A DNA stretch of 64,000 bases from Mustelus asterias (GCF_964213995.1 NW_027590143.1:1178001-1242000); one strand, 5' to 3'; shown: positions 5,484-52,950, numbered from the stretch's first letter. The notes: generated by a model not told the origin, from the sequence alone. A program made the numbers and translations.

Positions 5484-5553
5484 ATGCACGGAATACCAAG
5501 AGGTCTGCTGTTTGCAATTTATTATCCTATCCTTGCAGCTGTTGGGTTTCCAG
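5484..5553 (+). CDS. GPCR-A exon 1 (MHGIPRGLLFAIYYPILAAVGFP, N-terminus and TM1)
   Basis: ATG 5484, 70-nt exon, phase-1 donor G|GTACAG; homologous to 50244..50313. Confidence 0.9.
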
Positions 5554-6861
5554 GTACAGTAATTTTATACTGATTCATTGTGAATATCATTGTCTAAACT
5601 GTTCTCTCATTTCTGTCGTTACTCTATCACTTCTGTCATATATTAAAACTGCTTCTAGACAGATATGTTTTTTCCCCCATTCATCGGGCAATATTTGGCT
5701 TTTAATGGGACACTAAATGCAGCTGAGAGAGTATCATTTTTCCACTTTAATCGTATTAACACTCTGTTCAACAACATAACTTATGCCTTTTATTGACACA
5801 ATTACCCTTCATTATTGGTGACTTTTCTCCACTTTTATGGTGTAATTTCTTTGCTGAACCACAACGGTTGCTTAACGTTGCTGTTATACTATCGTCCCAT
5901 GATGAGTATCATTGTATCCTTGCAATTGTGTATTTCTTCTATTTATCACTACCAGCTCAATGTATAAATATAATTCATTTATTTTGGTGACAGAATTTCT
6001 CTTGGTGAAATATTAGTGTTTACTGAAGTTTAATTGAGTTTCAATTGCACACTTGTCATTGTTGCCATGTGGGCGCTATTGCACCTGGTTTAGCGACATT
6101 CTGCTATTGACACAGCTGCTCAATTTTACCATCGCGCACCTTGGTCCCAGTGCGAGAATGTGGAAGCTTTCTGCCAAATAGCTGAAATTTTCCATTACTA
6201 TTTTATTAATTGGTTCCTCGCTTAACGATCATGGCTCAAGCATGGCAGTCTTGGAAGTGCAACACTCTTATATTGCTCGAGCCCTGGAAGAGCACATGCA
6301 ATTATAACCTTCCAAGTCCGAAGCAAGAGACTGATTTACATGTTGAGTTGCTTAATTGGTTTGCGTGAATAATTCTCAAGCAAATTAGTCGTTTATATTT
6401 CAGTCATCTTTTCTCCCTGTTTTTATTTTGTGTGAAACATTTCCCTTCTTTAACATTCAATGTCATATATTGCCTTTCTGCCCAATTCCTTGGTCAATAA
6501 ATTATTAGAGCCCCTTCGATTTCGAATTCGCAATGTTTTGGACTCTTTTTATCTTCGTTTTTCTCAACAATTTGAGACAGATGATAATTAAGTTTATTTC
6601 CCCTGCCAATGAGCTACAAAGTAGCAAATTCAGTGTCCGCCATAGGACAGAAACAGAAATCTTCCTAATATTACAGCAACATGTCAATGGCTGTTTGCAT
6701 TGAATGATTTTATTTTCTCCAGTTACGAGGCAGGTAATCCACCTGATATGCTCAAACTTTTCTCTCTTTGCAATGATTTCCCGACCTCTGAGTCTTTGCG
6801 ATATTTCATGCTCTGTTCTTATTTTCTGCCATTTATTCACTGGAGATTTTCCCTGTTACAG

Positions 6862-7769
6862 CTAATTTGGCAGTGATTGTGATCCTACCTCGAGGAAGAT
6901 GTGGCCTCTCCAAATGTATCACTTATTACCTGGTATTCATGGCTGTAACGGATCTCCTGGTAATCATCACTGCTGTGATATTTAACCGGATTGTAGGTAT
7001 TTACTTTCCATTCAGCTTCCTGTCCATCACTCCGGTATGTCGTGTTAGTCTTATGCTTATTTATGGGGTCAGGGATTCGTCTGTCTGGGTAACTGTCGCG
7101 TTCACCTTTGATCGATTTGTTGCGATTTGTTGTCAGAAATTGAAAACTAAAGTTTGCACAGAGAAAGCAGCGGCTGTGGTTATTGGAACTGCCTGCGCTC
7201 TCAACTGTATAAGAAATATCCCACTGTACTTTATCTATGAGCCTGCGTTTTTTATCGATGTGACACCATGGTACTGCAACTTAAAAACAACATATTACAC
7301 AACACCTGCTTGGGTCTCATTTGACTGGATTATCGTCATCTTAAATCCTTGTCTTCCATTCATTTTGATTTTACTGTTTAATGCACTGACCGTCAAGCAC
7401 ATCGTTACAGCCAACAGAGCCCGGAGCAGACTCTTGGATCAAAGCAATGGAGAGAATCAGAGAGACCCTGAAGTGGAGAAGAGGCGAAAGTCGATTGTTT
7501 TACTCTTCTGTGTCTCCGGAAGTTTCATCCTGTTATATTCGTTAGTACTTACAACTTTTCTCTGCGTCCAAATTGCGAATGTTAGCTATTTCTCGGGAAC
7601 CAATTACAATAAATCTAATTTTATTCTGGAGGAAGGTGGGTTTATGCTTCAGCTGTTGAGTTCCTGCATTAACCCATTCATTTACGCAGGGACCCAGAGT
7701 AAAGTCAGAGAGGAGTTAAAAATTTGGCTGACATATCCATTCTGTCTAATATTTAAACTATTGAAATAA
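6862..7769 (+). CDS. GPCR-A exon 2: class A 7TM receptor, GPR139/GPR142-like (spliced product 325 aa)
   Basis: Acceptor TTACAG| at 6861 joins exon 1 in frame; TM2 MAVTDL, TM3 FDRFVAIC, TM5 PFILILL, TM7 NPFIY; open to TAA at 7769. Confidence 0.9.
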
Positions 7770-9242
7770 TGCTAATAGTAAAAGAAAACATGAGTTCTAC
7801 ATTATATAACATTCAATGCTTCTGCTGTTCATTTTACACGTGACCTCTACAATGGGACTGTGTTCTTGCTCTCTCTCGCTTTTTTTTCCTCTATGTTCCA
7901 GTGTGTCTGTACTGGCCGCAGTTTATGATGTCCATGAAGGCAATAAATCAGAAAGGCAAGTACTTATTAAAGAAGGGAAACGTGTTGAGAAACAGGGGGG
8001 GCTGTGCTCTCACCATCTGAAACTTGCAAATCATGCCAGATGCATGAATTCGCTCGACCTGGAATTTGCGAACGTGCCTAAAATTCTAACTTACGGTAAT
8101 CTATCAAAATCTCACCAATGTCAAATGCCACAAACTCACTTGCCTTTAATCCCATCATTCTTCAAGACTCAGTGGGGTTTACAACCTGCAGGCTACCCTT
8201 TTTCTGCTTTGCTGCCCCCGGCAGATTTTCTCTTGCAAAGAGCGGGATGAAGTATGATAGATGAAGAAAGAGAGAGAGTGAAAGTAATGCAGAGAGTAAC
8301 AGTGAGACAGTGAGGGACGCCGATCAATTCAGAAATAGTGAGTGCCAGGAGAGTCCGAGTCACTTCATAAGCAGGGCAAAGATCTGGAAATGGAGATGTG
8401 TTCCTTATCCATATTTAAAAGATAATCCACACTGCCAGCAGTTAGAGTTCACAATCTCTGCTCAGCCCTATGTTTGGGGGAAGGGCGGGAGGAGTGGGTT
8501 GGAATGGAATGTTGTTTAGTGTGGGATCGGGTTTATCTTTTCGAAAACAACAGTGATATTTCCAGCAAGAGCAACAAGGGCAAGATGCGTTAGTTCTTCA
8601 AAATGAAAAAAAAAACCTAAAACAGCAGCAGGTAGAAGTCACCAGGACTTACACCTTCAACTGAGTGATTCTCTAGTATTTCTCACTTTGCAAATTGCTT
8701 CTTTCATGTTCCTGAAATATTGGAGGCATAGTCATTACTGAAGCAATTCATTGTCTCGGGGCGTTCACTGTAAATAGCTTCTGGAAACAAATTGACACTA
8801 CAATCAATCAAAAACCCCAATGTCCATTCAAACTGCTCCCTCCCATCTGCTTGCCCATACAAAGGTTACTCAGGTTTCCAGAGTCATTTATTAGATAGAA
8901 ACATCTTCCCCCAGCGTCTTACAAACAACACATTTTCCACAGACCAAACTGTTTAAAAACATTCCCAAGTGTTTTTGTTGAACTCTTTAATTAAATTATT
9001 TACAGGTTCCTGTCACCACAACATAGAGAAAGACATTTCAGGGAGAGAGGCTTTCACCCTTTTTGAAATCATATCCCCAAACAGAAGTTCCCTCATTGCA
9101 CACAAAGATAAATATAGTGGCTCATACAGAGAGCGATATATAGAGAGAGGCACACCGGCACACAAAAACTCTCATGAACGAAGAGGTATACAGGGAAAGA
9201 GATACAAACGGAAATTCAGAGAGATATGCAGATAAAAAAGTC

Positions 9243-10700
9243 GAAAATAGGAACAAAGTCTATTCGGCCCTGCGATCCTTCTCTTCCTGCATCAAACTTA
9301 GTAACCCCTGCTCCCCAACCCACCCACCACCCCCCGCCGCCCCCTCCCCCTCCAACATTTAGCCTTTGATCCCTTTAACCCAAGTTTGTATACAACTCCT
9401 TCGTGAAGACAAGAAAGGTTTTGGCCTCGGCGGATTACTACAGTAGTGAATTGCATAGGCTCGCCAATCTCTTGGTGAAGAAGTATTTGCTCGCCTGAGT
9501 CCAAAATGTTTAATCTGGCACCCTTCAACATTGATCCGGGGTTCTGGGTGGCCTTGCCATGGGGACCATCCTTCCATCGTGCACCATGTCCAGCCCTGTT
9601 AGAAATTTATAGGTTTCTATGGCATCCTCCCCTCCCCGTGTACATTCTTCTAAACTCCCACGAATGTAATCCTAACCAACTTTTTTTTATCCACTCATGG
9701 GACATCGGGTTCATTGGCTGGCCAGCATTTATTGCTTATCCTTGTTTGCAATTTGAGGCAAGTTGAGAGTCTGAAGTCACTTGTAAGCCACACCAGGTAA
9801 GGACAGCAGATTTCCTTTCCAAAAGTGGATTAATGAAACAGATGTGTTTTTTCCCCACGACAATCGATTCATGGTCATCAGTTGATATTTAGTTCCAAAC
9901 ATGTTTGGAACGTTTGCAATGTTTGCATTAAATTCAAATTTTACCATCTGCCGTGGCGGGATTCGAACCCGAGTCCCCACAGCATTTGCTGAGTTTCTGG
10001 ATTAATAGTCTAGCGATACTGACACTTGGCCCCGAATGTCTCCTGAAGCATCTGTTTTGCCTATTACAGGAAACTGTCTGGTAAATATTTGCTGGACTCC
10101 CTAATAGAAAGAACATCCTTCCTCAGATAAGCAGACCAATACTGCACACCCTATTCAAGGTGTGGCTCACCAAGTTCCTGTACAATTGCAAAAGGGCATC
10201 CCTGTGCCTGGGCTCAAATCCCTTCATAATGAAGGCTAACATGTCATTCGTCGTCCTTTAAGCCTGCTGCAACTTTATACTTACTTTGAGCGACTGGTGT
10301 ACAATGACACCCAGGCATTGTTGCACGTTCTGCTTTCCACACCATAATATTTTCACTATCGAAATTAATAATCTCACAATTATCCACATTATACTGCTTC
10401 TGTCATTCTTTTCCTCGCTCACTCAACTTGTCCAAATAACATTGAAGCATTTTTGAATCCTTCTCATAGCTGACCCTCCTTTCAAGCTTTGTATCACCTG
10501 CATATTTCGAGATATTACACTTTCTTTTCTCATTAGTATCATTAATATATGTGAAGAATAGCTGAGGTCACAGCACTAATCCCTAAATTATCTCACTGGT
10601 CACTGCCTGCCATTGTCAAAAAGAGTCCCGTTTATTGCTTCGTTTTGATTCCTGTGTGACAACCAGTTTTCTATTCCTCTAAATACACTATCCCTATGTT
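9243..10700 (-). mobile_element. Degraded CR1 LINE interrupted by a SINE
   Basis: Reverse-strand CR1 3' UTR and RT remnants at 9243-9679 and 10032-10700. Confidence 0.75.
9680..10031 (-). mobile_element. tRNA-headed Deu-domain SINE (SacSINE1-like)
   Basis: B box GGGTTCGAATCCC on the minus strand near 9958-9970, central GAAATCTGCTGTCCTTACCTGG, A-rich end. Confidence 0.75.
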
Positions 10701-11529
10701 TCCTACATTGTAAAGATGACAACATTTCAAGAAGGTCTTGATTGGTTACAAAGTTTTCATGACGTCCTTTGGTTGGAAAAGATGCTACATAAAAGACAAT
10801 TTGTCTTTCTCAATTTATCTTCCATCCCAGTCCTCTATTCACTGATCCTCGTCGGTGGAAACAGTTTCTACCTATCAGCTCATTCCATGCATCCACCCCA
10901 CCCCTACCCCATAATATTCAAGAGTTCCATGAAATCTCTGTTTAACCTTCTTTGCTCGAAAGAGAACAATCCCAGTCTCTATACTCCCGTCTCAAAACTG
11001 AACTTACTCATCCCTGGGCATGATGCAAGACGGAGATTTGAGAGGAGATTTTGGAAAATATTGCCAGTTGGCAGGTGGGGAAAACGGAGAAGGAACAAAA
11101 CCAGAAAATCCAGACTCCAGCTTGTGGGCCTTTAGAAACACTTTGGGAACCGGAATCAGAGGAAAATGAAGGGTGAACTGTCCAAATGCGCTGGGATAGT
11201 CAAGGCACCTTTCCATTCTTTAGGACACTGGAGTATTGACTCTGATGTTATCAGTGCAATTAACTGATCGGAAAAGTTGAAAGGATTCTTGGTACTGCAC
11301 ATCTGGAATTCAAACCTAATATCCGCTTCCGGACAATCAGAACACTTGGGAACCGACGAGACACTCAAAGGCTCGAAGTGAGATGGCACCGTTTGTAGGA
11401 GAGCTGGTTCCCGGTGACATGGATGTGTCTGCAGGGGGTGGTTGCAAACCTTTTACATATTATGCCATTGCATCCAACAGTAAACTTCAGAAACTGATAA
11501 AATATGGTTATGAAGTTCAATCAGACTGC

Positions 11530-16187: not shown

Positions 16188-16522
16188 ATCGCTTCTCGGC
16201 CTTTTGGCTAAGATCAAGTGTAGTATGGATAGGATGCTGCACTTGGTTGAGGTCGTTAGGTCACATTTAAGCTTCATTTTCATATGAAGCATTTTTTTAA
16301 AGCGGCATCCCGGAATTTTGGCTAAGATGCACATGAGATCAAGCTTTGGAGGAGGAAGACCTGCGCCCACTCCAATCAGCTTGGCTCATGTAGATCAGGC
16401 CCAAGACAGGGGTTGCAGACCCTGTCTTGTCAGCTTGGATCGGGAATGCCTCAAATTGTTGACATTCTGAATTGGACTTCATTTGATTGAACTGGAAAAG
16501 TATGTTTTTTAAAATTCTCTTC
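16188..16522 (+). mobile_element. U2 snRNA-headed SINE-like unit 1
   Basis: Starts with U2 nt 1-39 (ATCGCTTCTCGGCCTTTTGGCTAAGATCAAGTGTAGTAT), then a non-U2 body, a second U2-like head, a hairpin, an A/T-rich end and a target copy. Confidence 0.75.
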
Positions 16523-17066
16523 ATCGCTTCTCGGCCTTTTGGCTAAGATCAAGTGTTAGTATCGACATGCTGTACTTGGTGGAAGTCATAAGGTTACATT
16601 ATAGCTTAATTATAAGCAATTTTTAAAAGCGGCATCTCGGACATTTGGCTAAGATACAAATGAGATCAAGCCTTGGAGGAGGAGCTATGCCTCCTCCAAT
16701 CAGCTTGGATCATGTAGTTCAGGCCCAAGACGGGAGGGGAGAGCCCTGTCTTGTCAGCTTGGATCGGGAATGTCTCAATTTGTTGTGACTCTGAATTGGA
16801 CTTGATTTAGAACATAGAACATAGAACAGTACAGCACAGAACAGGCCCTTCGGCCCACGATGTTGTGCCGAGCTTTATCTGAAACCAAGATCAAGCTATC
16901 CCACTCCCTATCATCCTGGTGTGCTCCATGTGCCTATCCAATAACCGCTTGAATGTTTCTAAAGTGTCTGACTCACTATCACTGCAGGCAGTCCATTCCA
17001 CACCCCAACCACTCTCTGCGTAAACATTTGAATTGGAATAAAAAAACATTTTAAAAAATTCTCCTC
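16523..17066 (+). mobile_element. U2 snRNA-headed SINE-like unit 2 (contains a CR1 3' fragment)
   Basis: Same organisation as unit 1; U2 head starts at 16523. Confidence 0.75.
16809..17024 (-). mobile_element. CR1 3'-end fragment nested in unit 2
   Basis: (AGAACAT)n reverse tail followed by ACAGTACAGCACAGAACAGGCCCTTCGGCCC. Confidence 0.88.
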
Positions 17067-17388
17067 ATCGCTTATCGGCCTTTTGGCTAAGATCAAGTGT
17101 AGTGTCGACATGCTCTACTTGGTTGAAGTCATAAGGTTACAATGTAGCTTCATTATAAGCAATTTTTTAAAGCGGCATATCGGCCTTTTGGCTAAAATGC
17201 AAATGAGATCAAGCCTTGGAGGAGGTGCAATGCCTGCTCCAATTAGCTTGGACCATGTAGATCAAGCCCAAGACAGGACGTGGGAACCATCTGTCGTCAG
17301 CTTGGATCGGGAATGTCTCACTTGCTGAGGCTTTGAATTGGACTTTGAGTGGATTGAATTGGATATATAAACAAAACAAATTCTCCTC
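17067..17388 (+). mobile_element. U2 snRNA-headed SINE-like unit 3
   Basis: U2 head ATCGCTTATCGGCCTTTTGGCTAAGATCAAGTGTAGT; ends in an A-rich tract and AATTCTCCTCATC before CR1 resumes. Confidence 0.75.
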
Positions 17389-20740: not shown

Positions 20741-21013
20741 TACTTTTTGTAGTGTTTCTTATTTCCACTGACAGCATTATATCCCCGATCTCGGTCCAAA
20801 TATGATACTAAATGATTTACAAACAAACTTCTCGCTGAATTAAGCACCAAACTCTTCGACTTCCAATGGAGTACAGGCAGCTTTCATTCAGAAACCAGTA
20901 CCTGATGTATTCACAAAGCGGCATGGAGAAAGACTCAGTTTAGGCGGTGTCACTGCCGGAGGAATGGAGAGCTGAAATTCACCCAGGAAAGCAGAAAAGT
21001 TTAAAAACAATGA

Positions 21014-21086
21014 CACCCGAAGTGGGGCTCAAACCCACGACCCTAACATTAAGAGTCTCATGCTCTACCGACTGAGCTAGCCAAGC
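21014..21086 (-). pseudogene. tRNA-Lys(CTT)-derived, probably a pseudogene
   Basis: Full-length match to vertebrate Lys-CTT, but T loop TTCG>TTTG and anticodon-stem mismatches. Confidence 0.85.
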
Positions 21087-21217
21087 ACATTGCGGCAGCT
21101 GTGCTTCAAGCCCCAAAATACGGGGACCACAAACGTGCTTTTCCATCTGGCATCTCAGATTGTTCAAATTTCAAAGTGGCGAATACAGTCGACCTACAGA
21201 ATCGCCAAGGTTACAAT

Positions 21218-24149: not shown

Positions 24150-24221
24150 GGCTCCATAGCTCAGTGGTTAGAGCCTTAGTTTTGCAAACCAGGGCCGCAA
24201 GTTCACTTGTCGTTGGAGCCT
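24150..24221 (+). pseudogene. tRNA-Thr(TGT)-derived pseudogene (loop now reads TGC)
   Basis: GGCTCCATAGCTCAGTGGTTAGAGC..AAACCAGGG..TGGAGCCT; T arm disrupted. Confidence 0.8.
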
Positions 24222-26902: not shown

Positions 26903-26909
26903 TTTTCAC

Positions 26910-30933: not shown

Positions 30934-32230
30934 AGGAACACAGCCGCGCGCTGCAAATGGTCACTCAAGGACTGCGACCTCTTTCATTCAATGTGGCAGC
31001 AACAGCAAGTGGGTCAAATGCGTTGAGCGACGATTTGCAGCTGGCTGCTGTATTCTGGGATCTCTGGTCTAATGGTGAGCATTTGAATCCAACGAACCGA
31101 GTTTAAATTTAGGCCGATCCTTGCTCTTCTTTGCCATTGCTGAGGATTGATTTTTTTGAAGAACCTTTTGTTTAAATTTCCCACAAAACAGGAATAGGGA
31201 GAGGACTTTTTCAGCCAGTTCAACTTCTTTTACAATGCACATTGCTGAGCTTCTGGCGACAGACGCTTGCATCAGCAATCTTCTTTTCATTTTTGCCTCT
31301 CGTGAACTCCTCTTTTGAAAGAAAGGAGCGGTTAGTGTAACACAACAACAACTATTCGACTGGAAACTGGCAATTATTCAGCAAGTCTTGGTGCGTGTGT
31401 GTGTATTTTGGGAGAAAGGCTTAGTGTCTTAGGTCAGAGTGCTGTCGGTTCCATGGGGTAACACGTATCACTCTAGACTCTCGCCGTCCCACTTTCTGTT
31501 TAAATTGGAACAGATGAGTGACTGAATGTCACCCGGAGGTTGACCCCCTTCAATATAGATATTGACTTAGTAACATCTTTTGAAATGAATAATCCTCATT
31601 TTGTTTCATTTTATGTCAATCAGGGTGACACGTGCTTGTATCTTACTATTCAAAACCTCAACCCCTTAACTTTTTAAACAGGTAAGGTTCAGTCGAAGAA
31701 AACTGATCCAAATTGAACCAAAAATTGTTACTGGAGTTGTTGCAAATCGCAACTCAAAATAGACCATGTTGGCAACACTCAGCAGGTCAAACAGCGTCTA
31801 TTGAGAGAGGAATACAGTGAGTGTGTAGGGTCGCTGACCTTTTATCCACACTGGGAGAATTTAGAGATTTAATGTTTTACTAACAAATACAAAATAAAGG
31901 GAAATAGAGAGAGAAAGGACGAAAAGTCAAACGTCCTTGTGATAGGATGTAAGGCTGGAGTGATTAGATGACAATGGGGATTGTTGTTTCCATTGAGACA
32001 ATCTCCCAGGTCTGAGTTCCAAATTCGAGCAAAATGAGAAGAAACCTTGTCACTGAATTAAGCACTAAACACTTCGACTTCCAGGGAGGCAAAGATAACT
32101 TTAACTCAGAAAGCAGTAACGGTGAGATCAACAAAGCGGGATGGAGAAAGACTCAGTTTGAGCGGTGGCAGTGCCGGAGGAATGGAGAGCTGGCGTTTAC
32201 CCAGGAATGGGGCAAGTTTTAAAATAAGAA

Positions 32231-32295
32231 AGCCGGACGTGGGGCTCGACCGTGAGATTAAGAGTCTCATGCTCTACCGACTGAGCTAGCCGGGC
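32231..32295 (-). pseudogene. tRNA-Lys(CTT) pseudogene with a T-arm deletion
   Basis: 5' two-thirds matches Lys-CTT (GCCCGGCTAGCTCAGTCGGTAGAGCATGAGACTCTTAATCTCA); ~8 nt missing from the T arm. Confidence 0.88.
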
Positions 32296-33135
32296 ACATG
32301 TGGGCCCCAGCACTCCATATCCAAAAATGTGTGGAGGCAAATAAAGCGTTTCCATCTGGTGTCTCAGCTTGTTCTGATTACAAAGTTTATAACTAGTCAA
32401 TCTACGGAATCCCTGAGGTTACAATGCATTCCCCTCGATCATCAATAACTTCATTCACATCTTCCACTTCTTAGCTTCACCTCTTTTCAAACATTGCACA
32501 AACAGTCTGATATTTTTCACCTTCATATTTTTGATCTGAATATTCCAACCACTTGGGGAAAGAGCGTTTCAGTGTGTCCGAAGTCAAACTGTCTCCCCAT
32601 TTTCAGGCTTTCCAATCCGATCACCTCTCATTATTCTAATCTACAGAGCAAACAGATTCATTCCACTGAATCTCTCCTCCCAGGACAACCGCATCATCAC
32701 AGAAATCAATCCAGTGAACCTTGATTGAACACAGACAACGAAAGAATAAAGGGATTATCGAGCAAAAGGGGGAACAGTGATTGATGAACTGACAGAGAGA
32801 CAGAGAGTGAAAGAGCCTGAGACAGGTATACAGCAACAAAAAAGACACGGAGAGGGACAGAGAGTGCGGCAGAATCGAATAAACACAAAACAGCTGTCTG
32901 AAACCAGAAGAATGTGGTCCTCTGAGTTGGTGAATAAGGATTAAGTGAATGTCCGAAAGCATAGTCACCTTTTGAAAATGTCTTGATTCTTTGTGAGTGT
33001 GTTGTGCTGACAGAATCCCTGCATTGTCTGCTCAGGTTCTCAAATCATACCCCATGTAAACCAATCCTGCCATGTGCACGGGAAATAAACTAACAAAATC
33101 CTCCTCTTCTCCAATGCGAAACGACAGCTTAATGA

Positions 33136-33224
33136 GGGCTTACCCAGAATTTGAACTGGGACCTCACGCAGGCTTGCGGATTTTAGCACCCAAAGCGAGA
33201 ATCATACCCCTAGGCGAAATAGCA
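33136..33224 (-). pseudogene. tRNA-Pro(TGG)-derived gene with an 18-nt intron at position 37/38, degenerate
   Basis: Minus strand CTAGGGGTATGATTCTCGCTTTGGG[TGCTAAAATCCGCAAGCC]TGCGTGAGGTCCCAGTTCAAAT..AGCCC. Confidence 0.8.
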
Positions 33225-33496
33225 ATCGTGATCAATGCAAGTCAACTAAATATATTTTCACTGCCATCCAAAGCGGATCATACACCTGCATTGAACGGTG
33301 ATAATGCTGGAAAAATCTCAGGAAGTAATACAGAGTGTGCACAGGAAACAAAGCTCACCTTTCACCTCCAAGACTTTTCATTAACATTGGGAATGGTTAG
33401 AAATGTAGGAAGTTTAAAACAAGTGAAATCCAGCAGGGAGGAAACATATCCGAGCTGTTAGAATTCTGCCGAAAGGACCAAAACTTAAATTGACTC

Positions 33497-33584
33497 TGGC
33501 AGCGGTGGGATTCAGACTCAAACTCACACCGCCTCAGAAACTGAAGGCTTAATCCAGCGCCTTAGACCGTTCGGCTACGGGAGC
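33497..33584 (-). pseudogene. tRNA-Leu(AAG)-derived pseudogene
   Basis: Minus strand CGGTCTAAGGCGCTGGATTAAG..AATCCCACCGCTGCCA; T and variable arms rearranged. Confidence 0.8.
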
Positions 33585-36166
33585 AGAAAAATAATCATGC
33601 TAATCCTGCAATTTGCTGATATTGTTACTGAAATACATTGGATGCAACTGATTTGGGAAAGGCCGTCAGGAGCCTGCACCTTCACTGAGTCAACTCATCC
33701 TGAACTGTTCAACAAACAGAAATCATCTCCAGTCAGAAACACAATGAGCTGCAATAAAGGCCCGGCACCATTTAAACTGTCCTTAGCCTCGTCTGTTTCC
33801 CAAACTCCTGACATAAATGACAAGAAAACTTCCTGTTGGAAGTCTTCACTTCCGGACACGAGGCGAGATTGTGTTTGATATGTTCCACCAGGCAATAACT
33901 GACATCTGTTTTCACGGTTTGGATGCGAGGAATAAATCTTCATTTACTGACCAGCAATCAAAACATCAGTGAAAATGTCAATCTCTAACCCCCAGAGCAG
34001 CAGTTTACAGTGTGTTTTAGAATTTGCTTTATCCACGCTACCTTTGTTATTTTTATTTTCATACTTTCACCACAAACAAGTTTTTCCTGCAAAATGGCAC
34101 ATTCTGCTTCAACACAGTGATGTATTCAGCCAATGAAAACACACAGCAATCAATACACTGCAGTTAACACTTTCGCTTCCGACGGTTCAGAACTGGACAG
34201 AAACATTTCCAAATGTTTTTCAATGCAGAGGGAAAAATTTCATATTTCGCTGACAGTGTAATCGGTAAAAATTTGGCAATTCATAATCCAGACTTTCCCT
34301 TGCATCACCATCTCTATTGCTCGTGCTTTGCAGACCATCACTGCCCTTCTCTTTCTGTGTTTGTTCTTGAACTGTTGAACATGTGACATTTCCAGCTCTG
34401 ATGTAAACGTACAATCCTCACTCGGCTGATTCTAGTAGATCTGCTTTCGATCAAAGAGTAAATCACCTTATTTTTAATCGTTTGCTGAGAATATTTTCTT
34501 CTTGAGCGAGAGTTGAAACCAAATATCATTGGGAGAGTGCTAAACACAAACCAGTGGACTACCAGGGTAACTGGTGAACTGAGGATTTCGAATTATATCC
34601 CTTTGCTTATTATTTTCATCCCTGATCGTTTTCACTCGATCGAAGTTTCTCCTTCAAAGTGTCCTGTTTGTATGGAACATAGGTACTTCCTTCAGCCAGT
34701 GAGGACACCAATTAAGTTCGCTGGGACAAGAAATTGACAGTGAGTGAAATCGTCCCACCAGATGCTGAAGTGATCGAGGTATATAAAATTGTAAAAGAAT
34801 TGATCGAATAAATGTAGACCAAATGTTTCATCTTTTCGGGCAATCGAGAAGAAGAGGTCACATGTATATTAAAGCAAGATACTGTGGGTGCTGGACTCTG
34901 AAAACCCCCCCAGGAAAAGCTGGAAAATCTCAGCTGGTCTGACAGCCTCTGTGGGGAAAGGATAGAGCCAATATTTCGAGTCGAGATGACATTTTGTCAG
35001 AGCTAGTGTTTCATATATAGGTTGAGAGGCGGTGGACGTAAAACCGAGATGCTGAGTAACCACGTATTGCTGACAGTCGTGGATTTGTGAAATTTCCTGC
35101 CCCATAGCATGGTGGATTCTGAATCTTTAAACGTTTTCAAGAAAGAGAACAGGTGGGGACGTAGATTTGTGACCAGGGAGAGATCAGTCATGAACTGATT
35201 GAATGCAGGCTCGAAGAGCTGTATTTGCCTACTTCTGATCTTAGTTCCTATGTTCTTAAGTGTAATTGTCAATTTTCAAAACCCACAACCACATCAATGT
35301 GACAGCTGTGCAATCTATGTACAGCACATCCACAGGTTCCCCTTTAGCCCTTGACTCCTGTAAAGAACTTTGGACTGGCCTCATTCTATGGTGGAATCAC
35401 TTTGTGATTTTTTTTTTGTGTCTCCCATCTAATCTCTCCTGACTTCCACCTCATCAGCTGTTGTTATGTTTCTTCCCTCCTGGATGTCACTTGTTTAAAA
35501 CGTCGTACATTTCTAACCATTTCCAGTTTAAATTACACGTCACGGAGGTGAAAAATGGAACTTTCTTTCCCTGTGCACACAAGAGTCCTGACTTCCCGCC
35601 TTTTTTCAGCACTTTCACTTTCACTGCAGATGTCTGATCAGATTTTGATGGCAATGGGAATGTAATGCCTAAACTGCTTTCCTCACGGTGGCTCGTAGGT
35701 CTGGGGGTACCATTCTGGCTTTGGGTATTAAGATCCACAAAGTCGCAAGAGGTCCCGAACAAGTCCTCATTTAGCTATTGTTTGCGATAGGGTTTGTGAA
35801 CGAACCGTTGGGTTTGTTAACTTATTTCCCGTGCACACGGCAGGATTGGTTTACATGGGGTTTGGTTTGAGAATCCGAGCACACGCTGCAGGGATTCTAA
35901 CAACATAACATGCTCACAAATAAATCAAGACATCTTTAAAAGATGTTTGTGGATATTCACTTTATCTCGATTCGCCAATTCAGAGGAACCCATGCCTGTG
36001 GGTTCAGAAAGATGACGTGTGTATAGCCATGATGTGCAGATATGACGTTGAACAGGTGTGGGCACATTAGAGGTCTCAGAACACCAAGCTAAAGTCCAAT
36101 AGGGTTTTTTTTGTTATCACAATTTTTCAGAGCGCTGCGCCTTCATCTAGTAAGTGATATGTATTG

Positions 36167-36470
36167 GGGTATCACGGTGGCAGAGTGGTTATCACTGCTG
36201 CTTCAGGGACCTGCATTCGATTCCCCGCGAGGGTAACTGTCTGTTTGGAGTTGGCAAATTCTCCCCATGTCTGCCTGTGTTATTTCTGGGTGATCTAGTT
36301 TCCTTCCACAGTCACAAGATTTGCTGGTTAGGTGCATTGGCCATGCTAAATTTCCCCTTAGAGTCTGGTAAATGCATGGGGTTATGGGGATAGTGTCTAT
36401 GCGGGACTTTGGTCGATGCAGACTCGATGGATCGAATGGCGTCCTTCCGCACTGCAGGAATTCTACAGGA
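36167..36470 (+). mobile_element. HE1-type SINE
   Basis: Head TCACGGTGGCAGAGTGGTTA, V-domain, tail GCAGACTCGATGG. Confidence 0.85.
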
Positions 36471-37056
36471 CTATTCATGGATTGTTGATGTCTGCTCTGT
36501 CTCTTTTTGTCACTCCATTACCGTATCAGTTTGTTTCAGTCCCTGTCTGTGCATCTATCATTGTTTGCTCTTTGCTCCTTCTATTCTCTCGCTGTATGTG
36601 TGTAACCAAGGTCCTCTGGATTGATTTCTATGATGAGGCTGTTGGATGAATATGTTCCCTCTGTAGTTTAGAATGAGATGTGATCACAATGAAAAGTCTG
36701 CAACTGGGAGACAGTTTGACAGTGAACATGCTGTGTGGCTTCACGCGCTGACTGGAGTATTTCGAACAAGAATATTAAGTTGACATAGAGTCATAGAGGT
36801 TTACAGCATCGAAACAGGCCCTTCGGCCCAACTTGTCCATGCCGCCCGACAGATGTAAGAGGAGTTTGCAATGTTTGGAAGGACATGAATCTAAGACGTG
36901 AAAGATGACAATGATGTTAATGATTATTGAGAGGAATGCATTGTAACTTTCAGGATTCTGTAGGTCGATTCATTGTAAACTTTGTAATCAGAACAAGCTG
37001 AATGGAAAAAGAAACACATATTTGTTTTGGAATCTGGAGCATCAGCGTCTCAATGT

Positions 37057-37129
37057 GCCCGGCTAGCTCAGTCGTTAAAGCATGAAACTCTTAATCCCAG
37101 GATCATGGGTTCGAGCCACACTTTGGGCG
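37057..37129 (+). pseudogene. tRNA-Lys(CTT)-derived, probably a pseudogene
   Basis: GCCCGGCTAGCTCAGTCG..CTCTTAATC..GGGTTCGAGCC..TTGGGCG; D-loop GG>GT and stem mismatches. Confidence 0.85.
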
Positions 37130-37464
37130 CAGCTCTGTTTAAACTTTGCCCTTTTCCTGGGTGAACGACAGTTTTCCATTCCTCTGGTGCTGTCACCGCT
37201 CAAACTGAGTCTTTCTCCATCCCACTGTTAATCTTAAAGTTTATGGTTTATGACTGAGAACTGCCTCATCTTCACTGGAAGGCGAGGAGTTTCGTGCATA
37301 ATTCAGCGAGAAGTTTTCTTCTCATTTAGAGTGAGATTTGCATCCAGATCTGGGAGATTGCGTCAGTGTAGACATTAATCTTCCCCATTGTCATTCCATC
37401 ACTATTGCCTTACATCCCATCACGAGACAGTTTGTTCATTCGTCCTCGCCCTTTCTAGTTTCCT

Positions 37465-39938
37465 AGGGCAATTGTTATGGGGGATTTTAACTTGACTAAT
37501 ATTGACTGGAATTGTTATAGCTCTAGCTCGTTAGAGGGGTCAGTTTTTGTTCAAAGCGTGCAGGAAGGTTTTTTGACTCAGTATGTAGACAGGCCAACTA
37601 GAGGTGAGGCTATATTGGATCTGGTGCTGGGAAATGAGCCAGACCAGGTGCTAGACTTGGAAGTTGGTGTGCATTTTGGTGATAGTGACCACAATTCGGT
37701 TACGTTCACCTTAGTGATGGAAAGGGATAGGCATGAACCTCGGGCCAGTGGTTTTAGCTGGGGGAAGGGTAATTATGAGGCTATTAGGAGAGAATTAGGA
37801 AACATAGGTTGGACTAGGAGATTACAGGGACTGGGAACGTCCGACATGTGGAGTTTTTTCAAGGAGCAGCTACTGCGAGTCTGTGATAGGTATGTCCCTG
37901 TCAGGCAAGGAGGAATTGGTAGGGCTAGGGAACCGTGGTGCACCAAAAAAGTTTCTTTGTTGGTTAAAAAGAAAAAGGAGGCTTATGTTCGGATGAGACG
38001 TGAGCACTCGGGTAGTGCACTAGAAAGCTTTAGATTGGCTAAGAGGGAGTTGAAGAGCGAGCTTAGAAGGGCTAAAAGGGGACATGAGAAGACTTTGGCG
38101 GATAGGGTTAAAGAGAATCCTAAGGCGTTCTATAGGTATGTCAAGAACAGAAGGTTGGTTAGGGCAAGTTTAGGGCCAGTTATAGATGGCAGAGGGAAGT
38201 TATGTGTGGAACCGGAGGAGATTGGTGAAGCATTGAACCAATATTTCTCTTCGGTGTTCACGCAAGGGGACATGAATATAGCTGAGGAGGACACTGGGTT
38301 GCAAGGGAGTAGAATAGACAGTATTACAGTTGATAAGGAGGATGTGCAGGATATTCTGGAGGGTCTGAAAATAGATAAATCCCCTGGTCCGGATGGGATT
38401 TATCCAAGGATTCTCTGGGAGGCAAGAGAAGTGATTGCAGAGCCTCTGGCTCTGATCTTCAGGTCGTCGTTGGCCTCTGGTGTAGTACCAGAGGATTGGA
38501 GGTTAGCGAATGTTGTCCCATTGTTTAAGAAGGGGAACAGAGACTTCCCCGGGAATTATAGACCGGTGAGTCTCACTTCTGTTGTCGGCAAGATGTTGGA
38601 AAAAATTATATGGGATAGGATTTATAGTAATTTGGAGAGTAATGAATTGATAGGTGATAGTCAGCATGGTTTTGTGGCAGGTAGGTCGTGCCTTACTAAC
38701 CTTATTGAGTTTTTTGAGAAAGTGACCAAGGAGGTGGATGGGGGCAAGGCAGTGGACGTGGTATATATGGATTTTAGTAAGGCGTTTGATAAGGTTCACC
38801 ATGGTAGGCTTCTGCAGAAAATGCAGATGTATGGGATTGGGGGTGATCTAGGAAATTGGATCAGGAATTGGCTAGCGGATAGGAAACAGAGGGTGGTGGT
38901 TGATAGTAAATATTCATCATGGAGTGCGGTTACAAGTGGTGTACCTCAGGGATCTGTTTTGGGGCCACTGCTGTTTGTAATATTTATTAATGATCTGGAT
39001 GAGGGTATAGTTGGGTGGATTAGCAAATTTGCTGATGACACCAAAGTCGGTGGTGTGGTAGACAGTGAGGAAGGGTGTCGTAGTTTGCAGGAAGACTTAG
39101 ACAGGTTGCAAAGTTGGGCCGAGAGGTGGCGGATGGAGTTTAATGCGGAGAAGTGTGAGGTAATTCACTTTGGTAGGAATAACAGATGTGTTGAGTATAG
39201 GGCTAACGGGAGGACTTTGAATAGTGTGGAGGAGCAGAGGGATCTAGGTGTATGTGTGCATAGATCCCTGAAAGTTGGGAATCAAGTAGATAAGGTTGTT
39301 AAGAAGGCATATGGTGTCTTGGCGTTTATTGGTAGGGGGATTGAATTTAGGAGTCGTAGCGTTATGTTGCAACTGTACACAACTCTGGTGCGGCCGCACT
39401 TGGAGTACTGTGTGCAGTTCTGGTCCCCACATTACAGGAAGGATGTGGAGGCTTTGGAGAGGGTGCAGAGGAGGTTTACCAGGATGTTGCCTGGTATGGA
39501 GGGGAGATCCTATGAGGAGAGGCTGAGGGATTTGGGATTGTTTTCGCTGGAAAGGCGGAGGCTAAGAGGGGATCTTATTGAAACATATAAGATGATTAGA
39601 GGTTTAGATAGGGTGGATAGTGATAGCCTTTTTCCTCTGATGGAGAAATCCAGCACGAGGGGGCATGGCTTTAAATTGAGGGGGGGTAGTTATAGAACCG
39701 ATGTCAGGGGTAGGTTCTTTACCCAGAGGGTGGTGAGGGATTGGAATGCCCTGCCAGCATCAGTAGTAAATGCGCCTAGTTTGGGGGCGTTTAAGAGATC
39801 CGTAGATAGGTTCATGGACGAAAAGAAATTGGTTTAGGTTGGAGGGTCACAGTTTTTTTTTTTAACTGGTCGGTGCAACATCGTGGGCCGAAGGGCCTGT
39901 TCTGCGCTGTAATGTTCTATGTTCTATGTTCTATGTTC
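37465..39938 (+). mobile_element. Young CR1 LINE, 5'-truncated, with an uninterrupted 786-aa ORF2 fragment (APE C-terminus and RT)
   Basis: ORF 37477..39837: GDFN, LDLVL, SDHN, PGPDG, QHGF, DFSKAFD, GVPQGSVLGP, FADD; (TTCTATG)n tail. Confidence 0.97.
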
Positions 39939-44714: not shown

Positions 44715-44786
44715 GGGTCTATGTTGTAATGGTGAGCACTCTGGACTCTGAATCCAGTGATCCGAGCTCAAATCTCGATGGAACCT
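44715..44786 (+). tRNA. tRNA-Gln(CTG)-like, the best preserved Gln copy but function doubtful
   Basis: Intact anticodon arm CTGGA CTCTGAA TCCAG; T54>C in the B box (GAGCTCAAATC) and acceptor mismatches. Confidence 0.6.
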
Positions 44787-47631: not shown

Positions 47632-47898
47632 CCATTTATTTATTTCTTAATTAGTGTCCCAATAGGCTTACATTAACGATGCAATTAAGTTACTGTGAAC
47701 GGGTACACTGAGGGAGAATTTATCACGGACAATCCACATAACATACACATCTTTGGAGGGTGGGAGGAAACCGGAGCACCTGGAGGAAACTCACGCAGAC
47801 ACGGGGAGAACGTGCAAACTCTGCATAATGGTCCAAGTCAAGCCGGGTCTCTGACGCCGTGAGACAGCACTGCTTACCACTGTACCACCGTCCGGGCC
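47632..47898 (-). mobile_element. HE1-type SINE variant
   Basis: GGAGGAAACCGGAGCACCTGGAGGAAACTCACGCAGACACGGGGAGAACGTGCAAACT. Confidence 0.85.
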
Positions 47899-47943
47899 CA
47901 TAAATTAATGATTTCACATGTATGTTATTATTTTAAAGTCTCA

Positions 47944-48180
47944 GAGGGATGTTTTTTACACAGAGGGTGGTGGGGGCCTGGAATGCGCTGCCAAGTAGGG
48001 TGGTGGAGGCAGGCACGCTGACATCGTTCAAGACTTACCTGGATAGTCACATGAGCAGCCTGGGAATGGAGGGATACAAACGATTGGTCCAGTTGGACCA
48101 GGGAGCGGCGCAGGCTTGGAGGGCCGAGGGGCCTGTTTCCTGTGCTGTACTGTTCTTTGTACTTTGTTGTTTGTTCTTTG
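47944..48180 (+). mobile_element. CR1 3'-end fragment
   Basis: FFTQRVVGAWNALP..EGYKRLV and tail. Confidence 0.92.
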
Positions 48181-49908
48181 ATCCAGTGGGTTAGTTGTTG
48201 CCCTTCTTAGGAGACTTTCATTTGTCAGTTATTGTGTGTTACTCTGTGACCAGGGTTCGTTCCATTGTTCAAGGTGATTCAAAGAATATAGACATTCGCA
48301 TGTTTAAGGGAGAGCCCGTTTGTTAGTTGGGACAAGCTATCCTGTGTCCAGGTTTGTCCTATTGATTCGGGTGATTGAATAATTAATGATTGATATTTTT
48401 CCGAGATCTGCCCGTGGATTGTACAGAGTCGCCATGTGGCCATTGTGTCCTGCATTTTATATCTTACTGGAAAGAAATACAGATTTATATTTTGTTTTAG
48501 TGGTTGACACTTCGCCGAGTCGATTATTTCTACCGTTCTTTTAGGTCCCTATATGTTTTAGATTAGCCCCATTGATTAAGGTGAACGTATGTCAATCCGC
48601 GGACCGTGTCCAGGGCACGATCCGAGAGTCTTTATTTTTGTGTGGATGTGGAAAATTCACTCACCCGAGGGCTGTAGGGTGTCAAGACCAGATCCAGCTG
48701 AGGTACATTTAGCTCCCATTCGTCCCACTTCCAAGGCTGGCTGTGGATGGTGTCTGGCCATTCTTACCTTTCCTCCCCAGTAGAGACCCAACTGGGGTTT
48801 AATCTTCCTTATTTAGCTTGCATCCCGACCGGTTTCGCTGCTTCCTTACGCTTCATCAAGGGAAGAGAGAGTTGTTCTCACTGTCCTTCGTGTGCTTTTC
48901 GTGGCCTTTTCGGATAGTGTGTCGTCCAGCAATTTTGGGGCGAGTGAGTGTTCTGTGTTCAGCTCGTGTTCCGTGCTACCTCTGCGGGTAATGGAAGTTT
49001 CCCCTCTCTACCTGTCCTGCATATGGGCTTAAATAGCGCCAATTCTTGTCCTGGAGTGACAGGAAGCTGTTGAAACGCATTGGTTCTCTGTGGGTTTTGA
49101 ATTCACCCCCTCCCAATCATTGACTGACAGGGAAACGGTGCGCTGTGTTCTCAGTTTTGTGTTCCCTCAATCTATGGTTCTGTGGTTAGGGCGGGTTGAG
49201 GATGGTTTTTTTTGCTTGGATGGGCGGGTGTTTGTTTTTTTGGTTCTGCTTTCGAATCTCTGTTGTCCCCTTATGCCCTGTGTGGTAACCTCTTTTAATA
49301 TTTTGGTTCCTGGTTCAGTCCTTGCGTTGCATTCCTGGTATTTGTGGGGGAGGGATATTCCTTTTTTCCCCTGTGATATTTTGTGCCAGTGGTGGGCTCT
49401 TGGTCTCTTTTTGGAGGCTTTGGCAGTGTCTGACAGTCAATAAGTCTTCAAGTGTGGCTGCGTCTCGTCCTTGTATATGGTCTGGTCAGGAGCGTGGAGG
49501 GTAAGGGAGAGAAGCTTCTTCCTGGTTTTTCTTATTGATTCGTGAAGGGGAAAGTGGGAGGGTCGAGGTGAACCAAGCAGATGGTTGGTGGGACATTTTT
49601 TGTAATGGTGTTGGGCTTGGGTAGTGGGGTTTTATTTGTGGGGCAGGGAGTCTTTTTGATGGTTTTGGGTACGTGTAGTGTTGTGGGGGGGGGGCGTGGG
49701 GTGGGTGCTTCGTATCATCTGGGTGGTGTTGTGTTCTGGGGGATGCAATGAATCTTTTTGTCTGTAGCTTAGGGAGAGATTATTCTCTGTCGACGAGACT
49801 ATTTGTTTTTTAAGTGGTGGAATATTTTCTTTGTTTCATTTTGGATTCTTTCCTTTCCCCTTTTTAAAGTCCGTATTCTTGTTTTTTTTTATTGGCTTTA
49901 TGTCACCG

Positions 49909-49999
49909 AGGGTTAGGGTTAATGTTAGGTTTCGGGTTAGTTAGTTATTTCGGGTTGGGGTTAGTTTTAGTGTCAAGGTTAGAGTTAGGGTTCGGGTTA
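49909..49999 (+). repeat. Degenerate (TTAGGG)n-like tract
   Basis: GGGTTAGGGTTA..TTCGGG..GTTAGGGTTCGGGTTA. Confidence 0.7.
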
Positions 50000-50132
50000 C
50001 AATGTGCAAACTCCACACAGACAGTGACCGGAGGCCGGAATTGGACCCGGGTCCCTGGCGCTGTGAGGCAACAGGGCTAACCATTGTGTCACCTTGCCGT
50101 TGTTGCAATAATCTCTTTGTTCTTTTAAATTT

Positions 50133-50201
50133 AATTAATGCGAAAGATCAAGCAACCTAATTATCTCCCTGGAGCATGACATCACGTATAAATGTGACAA
50201 T
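50133..50201 (+). promoter_or_regulatory. Proximal promoter of GPCR-B
   Basis: AATTAATG, TAATTAT, TCCCTGGAG and GTATAAATGTGACAAT, colinear with 5373-5441. Confidence 0.7.
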
Positions 50202-50243
50202 TTTTCAATGTAGTGCAGACCGCGATCAGCGCTTCTGGAAGAA

Positions 50244-50313
50244 ATGCATGGAATACCAGAAGGTCTGGTGTTTGCCATTTATTATCCAGTCATAGCAGCT
50301 ATCGGAGTTTCAG
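50244..50313 (+). CDS. GPCR-B exon 1 (MHGIPEGLVFAIYYPVIAAIGVS)
   Basis: ATG 50244, 70 nt, phase-1 donor G|GTAAAA. Confidence 0.9.
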
Positions 50314-50917
50314 GTAAAATATCTCAGTTATTTAGTTGCTGCCGAAAAATATTGTTTGGTTGCATTAATTCCTCCACTTTATTACCACCTTATCTCAACA
50401 GCACCAAGTTCCTCCTTTCATTGAAAGGGATATAGGTTTCCCCGTCAAAGTTCTGTTTTCTGCCCTTTAACGTATTCCTCGAAAATGTCCCGTTTCTACT
50501 TCAGTAGACAATTCCTTATTTGGCATTATAATTTAGCTATTCCCTGACATAATTTTTCGATGTTCATTCCATAAATTCTACAAATTTAACGGTATAATTT
50601 TACGTCTTTCCCACCGTAGTTCCTTCACATTAAATACATGGTTTCACCGTGTTAACCTTATACAACCGTGCTGTGACAGGTACCATTTCATCAGTTGGTA
50701 ATATAACCTGTCCCATTCACCAGTAACATCTGACAGGCGAGGTTTTATTGTGTTACTCATTCTGATTTACATTTCCGTTCTGTTATAATGGTTAAACACA
50801 ATTCAATGTTGTTATTTATGTTTTGTTATTTATGTTTGTTGTTTATAAAGTTATTATGATTGTTGTGTTGGCGTTGACAGTATTCCTCTGGGCGAATTCT
50901 CAAACTGAGCAGCAGAG

Positions 50918-51225
50918 GTACACTGTGGTTGGCACTGCTGCCTCATAGCACAATAAACAGGGGGTCAATTCCAGAGATGTGTTGTCTGAGTGGAGTTTGC
51001 ATATTCTTCGCATGTGTGCGTGAGGGTTTTCTCCAGGTGCCCAGAATACAAAACTGCGCAAGTTATGTAGATTTGCCGCGTAAAGAAGCACCTTAATGCC
51101 CATGGACGTGTATGTTAGTTGGATTAGCAATGGTAAATGCGCGGGATTACAGGGACAGGGCGGACAGAAGGGCATGGATGGGATGTTCTGGCCGAACGTC
51201 AGGGATGGATATGTAGAAGGCTGAA
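50918..51225 (+). mobile_element. Degenerate HE1-type SINE in the GPCR-B intron
   Basis: GTGGTTGGCACTGCTGCCTCA..GTGGAGTTTGCATATTCT. Confidence 0.75.
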
Positions 51226-52036
51226 ATAATGCAAACAGTTATCCTTTGATGAATGATTGTTATTAATCCCGAACTCACAACAATTTGTGCCTGCTCCCAG
51301 TGCCAAACACTCATTGGCTCCGCCCGGGAATCCTATTTCACATTTGCTGCTCCTGATTGCTTGATTCCTTTCTGTCCCAGAACCCAGTATCGTTTCAAAT
51401 TGTTCTGTTCTCTGCAAAGAGTCAAGCAAAATAACTCGTCAAATCTTTCGTTTCATATTTCACCGGATATTTCAGATGATTATCAGGGATACAATTCAGT
51501 CTTGGCGCTGCTTCCTAAATCTGCAAGTTCCGACAACTGCTAACAATTGTCCTTTTATTTGCCTTTGTTTGAGGATTTATTCGAGAAAATTCACTGCAAA
51601 CGTTTCCAAAAGTAAATAATTTTGCTGTCATTCATGGAGCCATATTTAATACCCATTGAAGTATAATCCGTGACCATATTAACATCCGCACTTATTATTG
51701 GGTATTTTCCAATTTATCTTCTCCAATATGTTTTAATTAGTTGTTTACATGTCATTGTATTGTGCATTTAATTATTCAGTTTTGGTTTTGATATGCTTTC
51801 CATTTCGCATTATTCCTCTCTCAGTTCTCATTAAAAATGCAATCACTTTCGTTAACATTCCTTATTATTAATAAAGATATTGTTATTAAGCAGAAACAAG
51901 TGTCCCTGAGATCAGGTATAAATGTTGCACCTATCACACAGAATTCAACATCATGGATTGTTTTGTTGCGATGAATGTTCCACTTCCCATGCTTCGTCAT
52001 GCACAAATTCTCACAATCTCTTTCCCTCTATTACAG

Positions 52037-52950
52037 CTAACACAGCAGTGATTATGGTCCTCGCAAGAAAAAGTTGTGGTCTCTCCAGATGTATCACGTA
52101 TTACCTTGTGTCCATAGCGGTGGTGGATCTCCTGCACATAATATCTGCTGTAATATTAAACCGGATTGCGGGAATCTTTTTTCCATTGAGCTTCTTGTCT
52201 GTCACACCAGTTTGCAGCGTCCGTACAGTCCTACATTCTACCGCCATGGACAACTCTGTCTGGTTAACCGTCGCTTTCACGTTTGATAGATTTGTGGCTA
52301 TTTGTTGCCAGAAGCTCAAAGTTAAATATTGGAATGAAAATGTGGCCACGTGGGTCATTGGAATCGTGTCCACACTCGCCTGTGTAAAAAATGTCTTTGT
52401 GTACTTTGTTTATGAACCCCTGTACATAATTGACGATGTACCCTGGTTCTGCAATGTAAAGTTAATATTTTACACATCCCCTTTCTGGGCTGCTTATGAC
52501 TTGATGCGTTGTATTGTAACTCCTATCCTTCCATTCATTTTGATTTTGCTGCTGAATGCTCTTACTGTAAGACACATTCTAGCGGCCAATAGAGCCCGCA
52601 GGAGACTCCGGGCCCAGAACAATGGAAAGAATCAGAGTGACCCAGAGGTGGAGAAGCGGAAAAAGCCCATTGTTTTACTCTTCACCATTTCAGGAAATTT
52701 CATCCTGTTATACTTGTTATTTTTTATAACTATCATCTATGTCCGAATTGCGAAAGTTACTTATTTCTCAGGTTCTGGTTTCAGTAATACATTTAATCTT
52801 GAGGAAACTGGATATATGCTTCTGTTTTTGTGTTCCTGCATCAACCCATTGATTTATGCTGGGACCCAGAGTAAAATCAGAGCCGAGTTAAAGAATTTGG
52901 TGAAATATCCACTCAAACAATTTGTTAATTTTTTTAAATTTTGCGCATAG
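52037..52950 (+). CDS. GPCR-B exon 2: class A 7TM receptor, GPR139/GPR142-like (spliced product 327 aa)
   Basis: Acceptor TTACAG| at 52036, in frame with exon 1; FDRFVAIC, PFILILL, NPLIY; open to TAG at 52950. Confidence 0.9.

Follow-up and report, generated by a model that had tools for sequence, protein, structure and literature searches.

The window analysed here is a stretch of 64,000 nucleotides (nt) of Mustelus asterias (GCF_964213995.1 NW_027590143.1:1178001-1242000, from an assembly of 3.68 Gb), and it contains two intact two-exon genes for class A (rhodopsin-like) G-protein-coupled receptors (GPCRs), called genes A and B below. In gene A, on the plus strand, exon 1 (5484..5553) is 70 nt long, begins with the ATG at 5484 and supplies 23 codons plus 1 nt, that is, the N-terminus and the first half of transmembrane helix 1 (TM1). 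A phase-1 GT..AG intron of 1308 nt (5554..6861) separates it from exon 2 (6862..7769), which encodes the remaining part of TM1 through the stop (Pfam 7tm_1, E 1.5e-19). Gene B, on the same strand, comprises a 70-nt exon 1 (50244..50313), a phase-1 GT..AG intron of 1723 nt (50314..52036), also within TM1, and exon 2 (52037..52950; Pfam 7tm_1, E 1.5e-18). Both reading frames are open, the proteins of 325 and 327 amino acids are 62% identical (195/316), and 7tm_1 is the sole Pfam match of each. Coordinates and translation bear out the gene structure, with its very short N-terminus, that an earlier interpretation made from the DNA alone (hereafter the sequence-only reading) had described, and every cytoplasm-facing and TM motif quoted there is present as written.

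The class A anchors N1.50, D2.50, DRx, the disulfide between C3.25 and extracellular loop 2 (ECL2), P5.50 and NPxxY are all found in both genes; the generic numbering was set by hand on conserved anchors, and in TM2 and TM4 it is possibly off by one. An AlphaFold model of gene A exon 2, built from an 82-row alignment, displays seven helices, an ECL2 hairpin and helix 8 (predicted local distance difference test 72.5, predicted TM-score 0.68). In a Foldseek search that was non-discriminating, this model matched peptide GPCRs at a TM-score of about 0.7, and GPR139 was not among the 50 rows listed. No third family copy was found by tblastn in the unmasked window, whose masked stretch (53158-53333) lies outside genes A and B. 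Scaffold labels (C4-C2521, prefix G000) and locus labels (L068-L318) used below are our own names for assembly scaffolds and loci, the window's scaffold being G000:C111.

Size and clustering of the family

A search of the assembly with gene A gave 5,771 first-look candidates, and all 131 that were scored are at least 59% identical to it, 8 of them with a stop. Allowing at most one mismatch, the TM3 motif occurs 3,236 times in the assembly against once for the reversed control. It recovers 125 of 152 intact loci that had not been selected by the motif, and it misses GPR139, GPR142 and an orphan receptor (L114) described below. Among 88 motif-picked loci, a non-random set spread by hand across clusters, 59 (67%) are intact and 29 broken; 61 had been flagged open, and 2 were removed as their low scores indicate frameshifts. 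In all, 212 intact loci were sampled, corresponding to 139 distinct proteins below 95% identity. The sampled fractions lead to a figure of roughly 900-2,600 intact family genes in the assembly, which is estimated rather than counted.

Tandem clusters are found on at least C4, C5, C8, C15, C16 and C71, and further clusters on C20 and C22. Membership of genes A and B in an expanded family, as proposed in the sequence-only reading, is borne out by the motif matches, by clusters on many chromosomes and by the number of distinct proteins; a set of one to three simple orthologs is excluded by the 3,236 matches. Along one cluster (G000:C8:28.5-29.5 Mb, L218-L228), two family subtypes with an exon 2 of 299 and 317 amino acids alternate in a repeated two-gene unit of about 100 kb. 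Gene A has near-copies on two unplaced contigs (99.8-99.9% identity over 3.9 kb) and gene B has one at 99.8%, while scaffolds of at least 7.8 Mb carry just 55 of the 131 scored gene A matches (hand count); assembly duplicates may be among the counted copies. Both observations fit a largely passive amplification, in which a few useful orphan receptors were multiplied in segmentally duplicating regions, most copies being redundant and assembly duplicates inflating the count; the 139 distinct proteins among 212 intact loci speak against it.

Range and origin

A database search with gene A gives 1,637 relatives at E<=0.001. The best 120 relatives of gene A consist of 119 named shark or ray proteins and 1 unnamed protein, mostly labelled 'probable GPR139', and those of a distant subfamily of 116 shark or ray proteins and 4 unnamed ones. 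No chimaera or bony-vertebrate member was seen among the best 120 relatives of either, a result that does not show such members to be absent. Sharks and rays have in common subfamilies at about 40% identity, a further point against passive amplification.

GPR139 is described as an orphan class A receptor activated by L-Trp and L-Phe (PMC5430874). In this genome the true GPR139 is a single-copy gene on C23 (L068; PDB 7VUG, E 4.6e-159), and GPR142, which groups with named GPR142, is a single-copy gene on C12 (L069). Family members are 26-33% identical to GPR139, which was not matched at E 0.001 in the gene A search. Two other receptors, here called types X and Y, are conserved single-copy orphan GPCRs that carry the wrong database name 'probable GPR139'. 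Type X, represented by coelacanth XP_005988539 (P0204), has relatives in sharks, sturgeon, teleosts, amphibians and reptiles, mostly once per species, and the named rows of these relatives contain neither birds nor mammals; type X occurs here in a single copy (L318, G000:C25:56.7 Mb) and is the best non-shark match to the family profile (E 1.9e-69). Type Y is also single here (L114, G000:C5:28.7 Mb) and has relatives in bichir and lamprey. The two may be the GPR210A/B named beside GPR139/142 in coelacanth, gar and fishes (PMC6504862), with which their identifiers could not be matched.

In two quick maximum-likelihood trees, the second of which leaves out two long-branch outgroups, the family forms one clade with support 100 (supports are SH-aLRT values, from the Shimodaira-Hasegawa-like approximate likelihood ratio test). 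It is joined by type X (91 and 82), then by type Y (99 and 94) and then by two amphioxus genes (96 and 97), with GPR139/142 outside. Forcing the family together with GPR139/142 was rejected marginally (approximately unbiased (AU) test, p=0.0395, LG+G4 quick tree). The acceptor just before N1.50 lies at the same position in GPR139, GPR142, type Y and 186/186 intact loci, and 114 of 129 usable database relatives possess the same 23-residue first part. This common phase-1 acceptor position argues for common ancestry with GPR139/142, not for orthology.

The residues of the GPR139 Trp/Phe site reported as needed for activation are F109 (3x33), H187 (5x43), W241 (6x48) and N271 (7x38) (PMC5430874). 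At the equivalents of F3.33/H5.42/W6.48/N7.39, gene A has Y/I/Y/F and gene B S/R/Y/Y, so that none of the four is kept in either, and 0/139 distinct members keep all four. Orthology to GPR139/142 was consequently rejected on three counts: the presence of these as separate single genes, the separate clade and the loss of the Trp/Phe-site residues. The wording 'GPR139/142-like paralogs' of the sequence-only reading is too close for a family at about 30% identity that groups with X, Y and the amphioxus genes (AU p=0.04).

The best solved relatives of the family profile are the TRH receptor and GPR139, with no OR among its best 60, and gene A shows a weak partial match to consensus OR52 (E 2.6e-5). 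Membership in OR, TAAR, V1R or V2R was also considered and rejected, given the 7tm_1 match alone and the lack of an OR in the profile's best 60; those families lay outside the trees. Judged by these comparisons, the family is an elasmobranch lineage related to, yet separate from, GPR139/142, whose nearest relatives appear to be two single-copy vertebrate orphans. Tandem duplication and loss, starting from such an orphan lineage, would best explain the expansion.

Constant inner face and variable outer half

Genes A and B differ at 49 of 92 positions in the outer TM halves against 29 of 100 in the inner halves (Fisher p=7e-4), and at 11 of 38 positions in the intracellular loops. Among the 139 distinct members, entropy is 2.07 bits in the pocket, defined by the generic positions that we take from class A structural work to face the ligand, versus 1.03 in the inner TM halves (p=5e-8). 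D2.50, D3.49 and R3.50 are invariant (139/139), and N1.50 (137), Y7.53 (138) and C3.25 (130) nearly so; P7.50 is replaced by T in 76 of them, and most have lost P6.50. Along the outer pocket, the 67 genes of the window's subfamily conserve a set of charged residues, acidic and basic, namely D3.37 (63 genes), D5.39 (65), E7.36 (57), K4.56 (51) and R6.59 (53), beside positions that toggle among a few very different residues.

The sequence-only reading had claimed a diversified ligand pocket together with a common G-protein coupling face. The constant signalling face and the variable outer half both hold; the excess of change is not specific to the pocket, with 21/38 pocket-facing positions differing between genes A and B against 28/54 other outer-TM positions (p=0.83), and p=0.08 for the same comparison family-wide. 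A pocket-specific excess was rejected on these two results.

Selection

Codon models were fitted with code that reproduced IQ-TREE likelihoods. The set for the window's subfamily, 67 genes retained from 108 after removal of near-copies, is under purifying selection, with a nonsynonymous-to-synonymous rate ratio (omega) of 0.27 and no class above 1. Positive selection was not detected in these 67 genes, twice the log-likelihood difference (2dL) being 0 for both M1a/M2a and M8a/M8, and M7/M8 is significant solely via a neutral class; the site-wise check that the sequence-only reading had called for therefore turned out negative in this subfamily. Among seven young subclades, six are not significant, and omega is 0.22-0.56 in 7 of the 8 sets, values which argue against passive amplification while neighbouring sequences decay.

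The one significant subclade is a cluster on C15 (21 genes; 2dL=156, with 16% of sites at omega 5.6), where 19 of 22 selected sites are extracellular, mostly in loops (p=2e-5). The C15 loops also have a higher synonymous divergence (0.18 versus 0.05), hence gene conversion may inflate or contribute to the selection signal. General positive selection across the family was rejected, as it is significant in 1/8 sets. The C15 cluster (G000:C15:80.4-84.4 Mb, L070-L097) is young and holds at least about 60 genes; the apparent positive selection there is strong and falls on ECL1-3 and the top of TM7, and the cytoplasmic half is homogenised. The role of this cluster may differ from that of the window's subfamily.

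Promoter elements

A promoter-like element precedes each gene on the plus strand. That of gene A (5398..5432) contains a homeodomain-type TAATTA (5398-5403), an O/E-like site with one mismatch (5406-5415) and a TATA box (5427-5432) located 57 nt upstream of the ATG; that of gene B (50158..50192) contains TAATTA, an adjoining O/E-like site and a TATA box, again 57 nt upstream of the ATG. The O/E consensus was taken from Table 1 of PMC3247239, with at most one mismatch allowed. Exon 1 could be placed in 27 of 167 short loci and in 16 of 40 long regions, and 29 promoters were analysed, 15 from the window's subfamily and 14 others, some of the TATA picks being uncertain. An O/E-like site within 45 nt of the TATA box occurs in 10/15 subfamily promoters, 3/14 others and 4/342 control windows (shuffle maximum, 2 per set), and a homeodomain site in 9/15 subfamily promoters and 2/14 others versus 62/342 control windows. 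Pairwise identity reaches 0.52-0.55 in the promoter element against 0.26-0.28 in flanking DNA, which is not what passive amplification would lead one to expect. A strict composite pattern derived from gene B, and thus partly circular, occurs 41 times (0 in the control), 39 of them on C71 or unplaced contigs; gene A misses it by one base.

The same elements are reported as enriched in mouse OR promoters (PMC3247239), adjacent Lhx2/Ebf sites as marks of OR enhancers (PMC5608512), and O/E-like motifs as present in V1R promoters (PMC3247230). The resemblance of the elements in the window's subfamily to mouse odorant-receptor promoters would favour expression in olfactory neurons.

Neighbouring sequences

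A pseudogene of the T-cell receptor (TCR) V type, not a member of the GPCR family, lies on the minus strand at 61213..62023. It retains a leader exon, an intron, a V exon and a recombination signal sequence (RSS) with a 23-spacer, and is inactivated by a single in-frame TGA at 61541-61539. A C2H2 zinc-finger remnant near 56174 (minus strand) contains stops, and three weak tRNA matches (38-43 bits) are found at 21012-21087 (minus), 24150-24221 (plus) and 44715-44786 (plus), of which ARAGORN still calls one as tRNA-Lys. The decay of neighbouring tRNA, zinc-finger and V sequences pointed out in the sequence-only reading is therefore real. The window also carries three degenerate copies of U2 small nuclear RNA in a tandem unit of about 324 bp (16188-17258, plus), an open frame of 792 codons for a reverse transcriptase of the long interspersed nuclear element type (37459-39834, plus) with many older CR1/L2-like fragments around, and a decayed long inverted duplication at about 31,500-37,500.

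Beyond the window, on scaffold C71 (20 Mb) and on contigs C87-C2521, GPCR genes are interleaved with TCR V-type segments bearing a 23-spacer RSS, and both have been duplicated together. A PF09291 search for a TCR-alpha constant region gave no match, nor did it give one in any control.

Discussion

The family shows the features of a chemoreceptor repertoire: it is large and clustered, undergoes birth and death, and joins a variable ligand side to a constant G-protein side. Taken with the promoter elements, these features lead us to regard it as likely, by a modest measure, that the family is a repertoire of smell receptors in olfactory neurons. A broader proposal is more tentative, and we put it somewhat below even chances: sharks and rays might smell mainly by a receptor family of their own, of a thousand or more genes, independently recruited from a peptide-receptor-like orphan lineage and used one per microvillous olfactory neuron. 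Under the first reading, that of a smell-receptor repertoire, these promoters would drive one or a few family members in each olfactory neuron. The ligands would be water-soluble amines, amino acids or short peptides, bound through the conserved charged residues D3.37, D5.39, E7.36, K4.56 and R6.59, selectivity would be set by the positions that switch between copies (3.32, 3.36, 5.42, 5.43 and 7.39), and all members would share a single G protein, probably Go, with TRPC2.

Work on the catshark reports TRPC2 and Go in nearly all olfactory neurons, which are arranged as an almost continuous monolayer, with 5.94 neurons per mm labelled for v2r1, 2.76 for taar1a, 0.45 for ora2 and about 3.5 for four cross-reacting V2R probes together (PMC10116579). 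Added up, these counts give about 12.6 neurons per mm for the seven probes that gave signal; for the monolayer we assumed, on our own account, about 100 cells per mm. Most neurons would then be without a known receptor, which leaves room for a missing family.

Several points weigh against an olfactory role. The low in situ counts may reflect probe sensitivity, and the 50 most abundant specific genes listed for a catshark 'brain and olfactory epithelium' library include no GPCR (PMC11979771), though a list of that kind is not where sparsely expressed receptors would turn up. The pocket is no more variable than the rest of the outer TM halves, so relaxed constraint may account for some of the variation in the outer half, and positive selection is lacking in the window's subfamily and in six of the seven young subclades. 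As for the promoters, the location of exon 1 in just 16 of 40 long regions limits the sample, the promoters are mutually related and their counts hence not independent, and the signal is weaker outside the window's subfamily, where the homeodomain site is not enriched. The Ikaros consensus of PMC3247239 (Table 1) is likewise matched by some copies of the element. The window's own cluster, moreover, is interleaved with TCR V segments. EBF, for its part, is not nose-specific, as it acts in B cells and in other neurons as well. Four sequencing runs at gene A cover the intron and lack the predicted splice joint; they are DNA-like and uninformative on expression.

The first alternative, which we consider unlikely, is a leukocyte receptor repertoire for microbial or self peptides, comparable to FPR or MRGPR and diversified by a host-pathogen arms race. 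The interleaving of the window's cluster with V segments, on C71 and on many unplaced contigs, is reminiscent of the antigen-receptor complex described in elasmobranchs (PMC12227049), the extracellular, mostly loop-borne selected sites of the C15 cluster would suit large ligands, and in lymphocytes EBF1 or Ikaros could occupy the promoter element. However, many clusters lie elsewhere (C4, C5, C8, C15, C16, C20 and C22), where no V segment was found among 150 scored; the C15 signal may be inflated by gene conversion; and a homeodomain site beside the O/E-like site fits olfactory neurons better than an immune role. Furthermore, odorant-receptor genes flank the TCR alpha/delta locus of mammals too, so that linkage need not mean an immune function.

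A little less likely again is a chemosensory repertoire outside the nose, in taste buds, solitary chemosensory cells of skin or gill, gut endocrine cells or sperm. Family size, birth and death and the variable outer half are compatible with any chemosensory tissue, and the known taste receptor genes of cartilaginous fishes are put at only 2-5 (PMC10869828), which favours such a role. Against it, the O/E-like and homeodomain promoter indicates olfactory-type neurons, and repertoires near a thousand or more genes are otherwise reported as typical of olfactory families (PMC10869828). Passive amplification we hold to be improbable: the near-copies, the scatter over small scaffolds, the V, tRNA, U2 and zinc-finger remnants carried along with GPCR copies and the lack of positive selection in 7/8 sets all fit it, but not the low omega, the distinct proteins, the subfamilies shared by sharks and rays or the conserved promoter element.

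Whatever its function, a family with roughly 900-2,600 intact genes, annotated automatically as 'probable GPR139', runs counter to the 'relative paucity' of GPCRs stated for cartilaginous fishes (PMC8455134). Complete olfactory receptor genes in these fishes are counted at 20-62 (PMC10869828), and the contrast of few receptors with large noses has been explained as a trade-off of sensitivity for discrimination (PMC10116579). If olfactory, the family would be a further independent family of vertebrate odorant receptors and would supply the receptors absent from most shark olfactory neurons; if it were the main olfactory family, it would be on a par with the largest odorant-receptor repertoires of mammals, and the view of only 20-62 receptors would be overturned. 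If immune, it would be an unrecognised germline repertoire beside antigen-receptor loci. The proteins are already in databases under automatic names, and the expansion itself is apparently undescribed: no published description was found in the literature on GPR139 in sharks, elasmobranchs or cartilaginous fishes, a search with subscription papers mostly, and supplements wholly, outside its scope.

Comparison with known systems

With GPR139 and GPR142 the family shares the wider lineage and the phase-1 acceptor just before N1.50, and the NCBI pipeline gives the GPR139 name to most of its members. It differs in that those are single separate genes (C23 and C12) in another clade, with 26-33% identity to GPR139 and Trp/Phe-site residues absent from the family. 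Types X and Y are its nearest relatives in both trees; these are single-copy, whereas the family forms a long branch with on the order of a thousand genes.

A parallel in the manner of expansion may be the nematode srw chemoreceptor candidates, for which a birth-and-death expansion from the myosuppressin/FMRFamide-receptor group has been described and a role as detectors of environmental peptides proposed (PMC2576165). They too expanded from related peptide receptors, which provides a precedent for an olfactory reading of the shark family, and in a sequence atlas, clusters that are FMRFamide-receptor-like and carry Srw domains are among those neighbouring gene A. The srw genes are nonetheless a separate expansion in another phylum, and their sequences lay outside the trees made here.

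The vertebrate OR, TAAR and V1R/ORA families resemble the shark family as large clustered families with many pseudogenes, a very short N-terminus, a compact coding region, a variable outer half and a constant inner face; FPR and MRGPR are further expanded class A families. The likeness extends in the window's subfamily to a putative promoter combining O/E-like, homeodomain and TATA elements. The shark family differs from OR, TAAR and V1R/ORA by its intron in TM1, its match to 7tm_1 only and an independent origin, probably from a peptide-receptor-like lineage.

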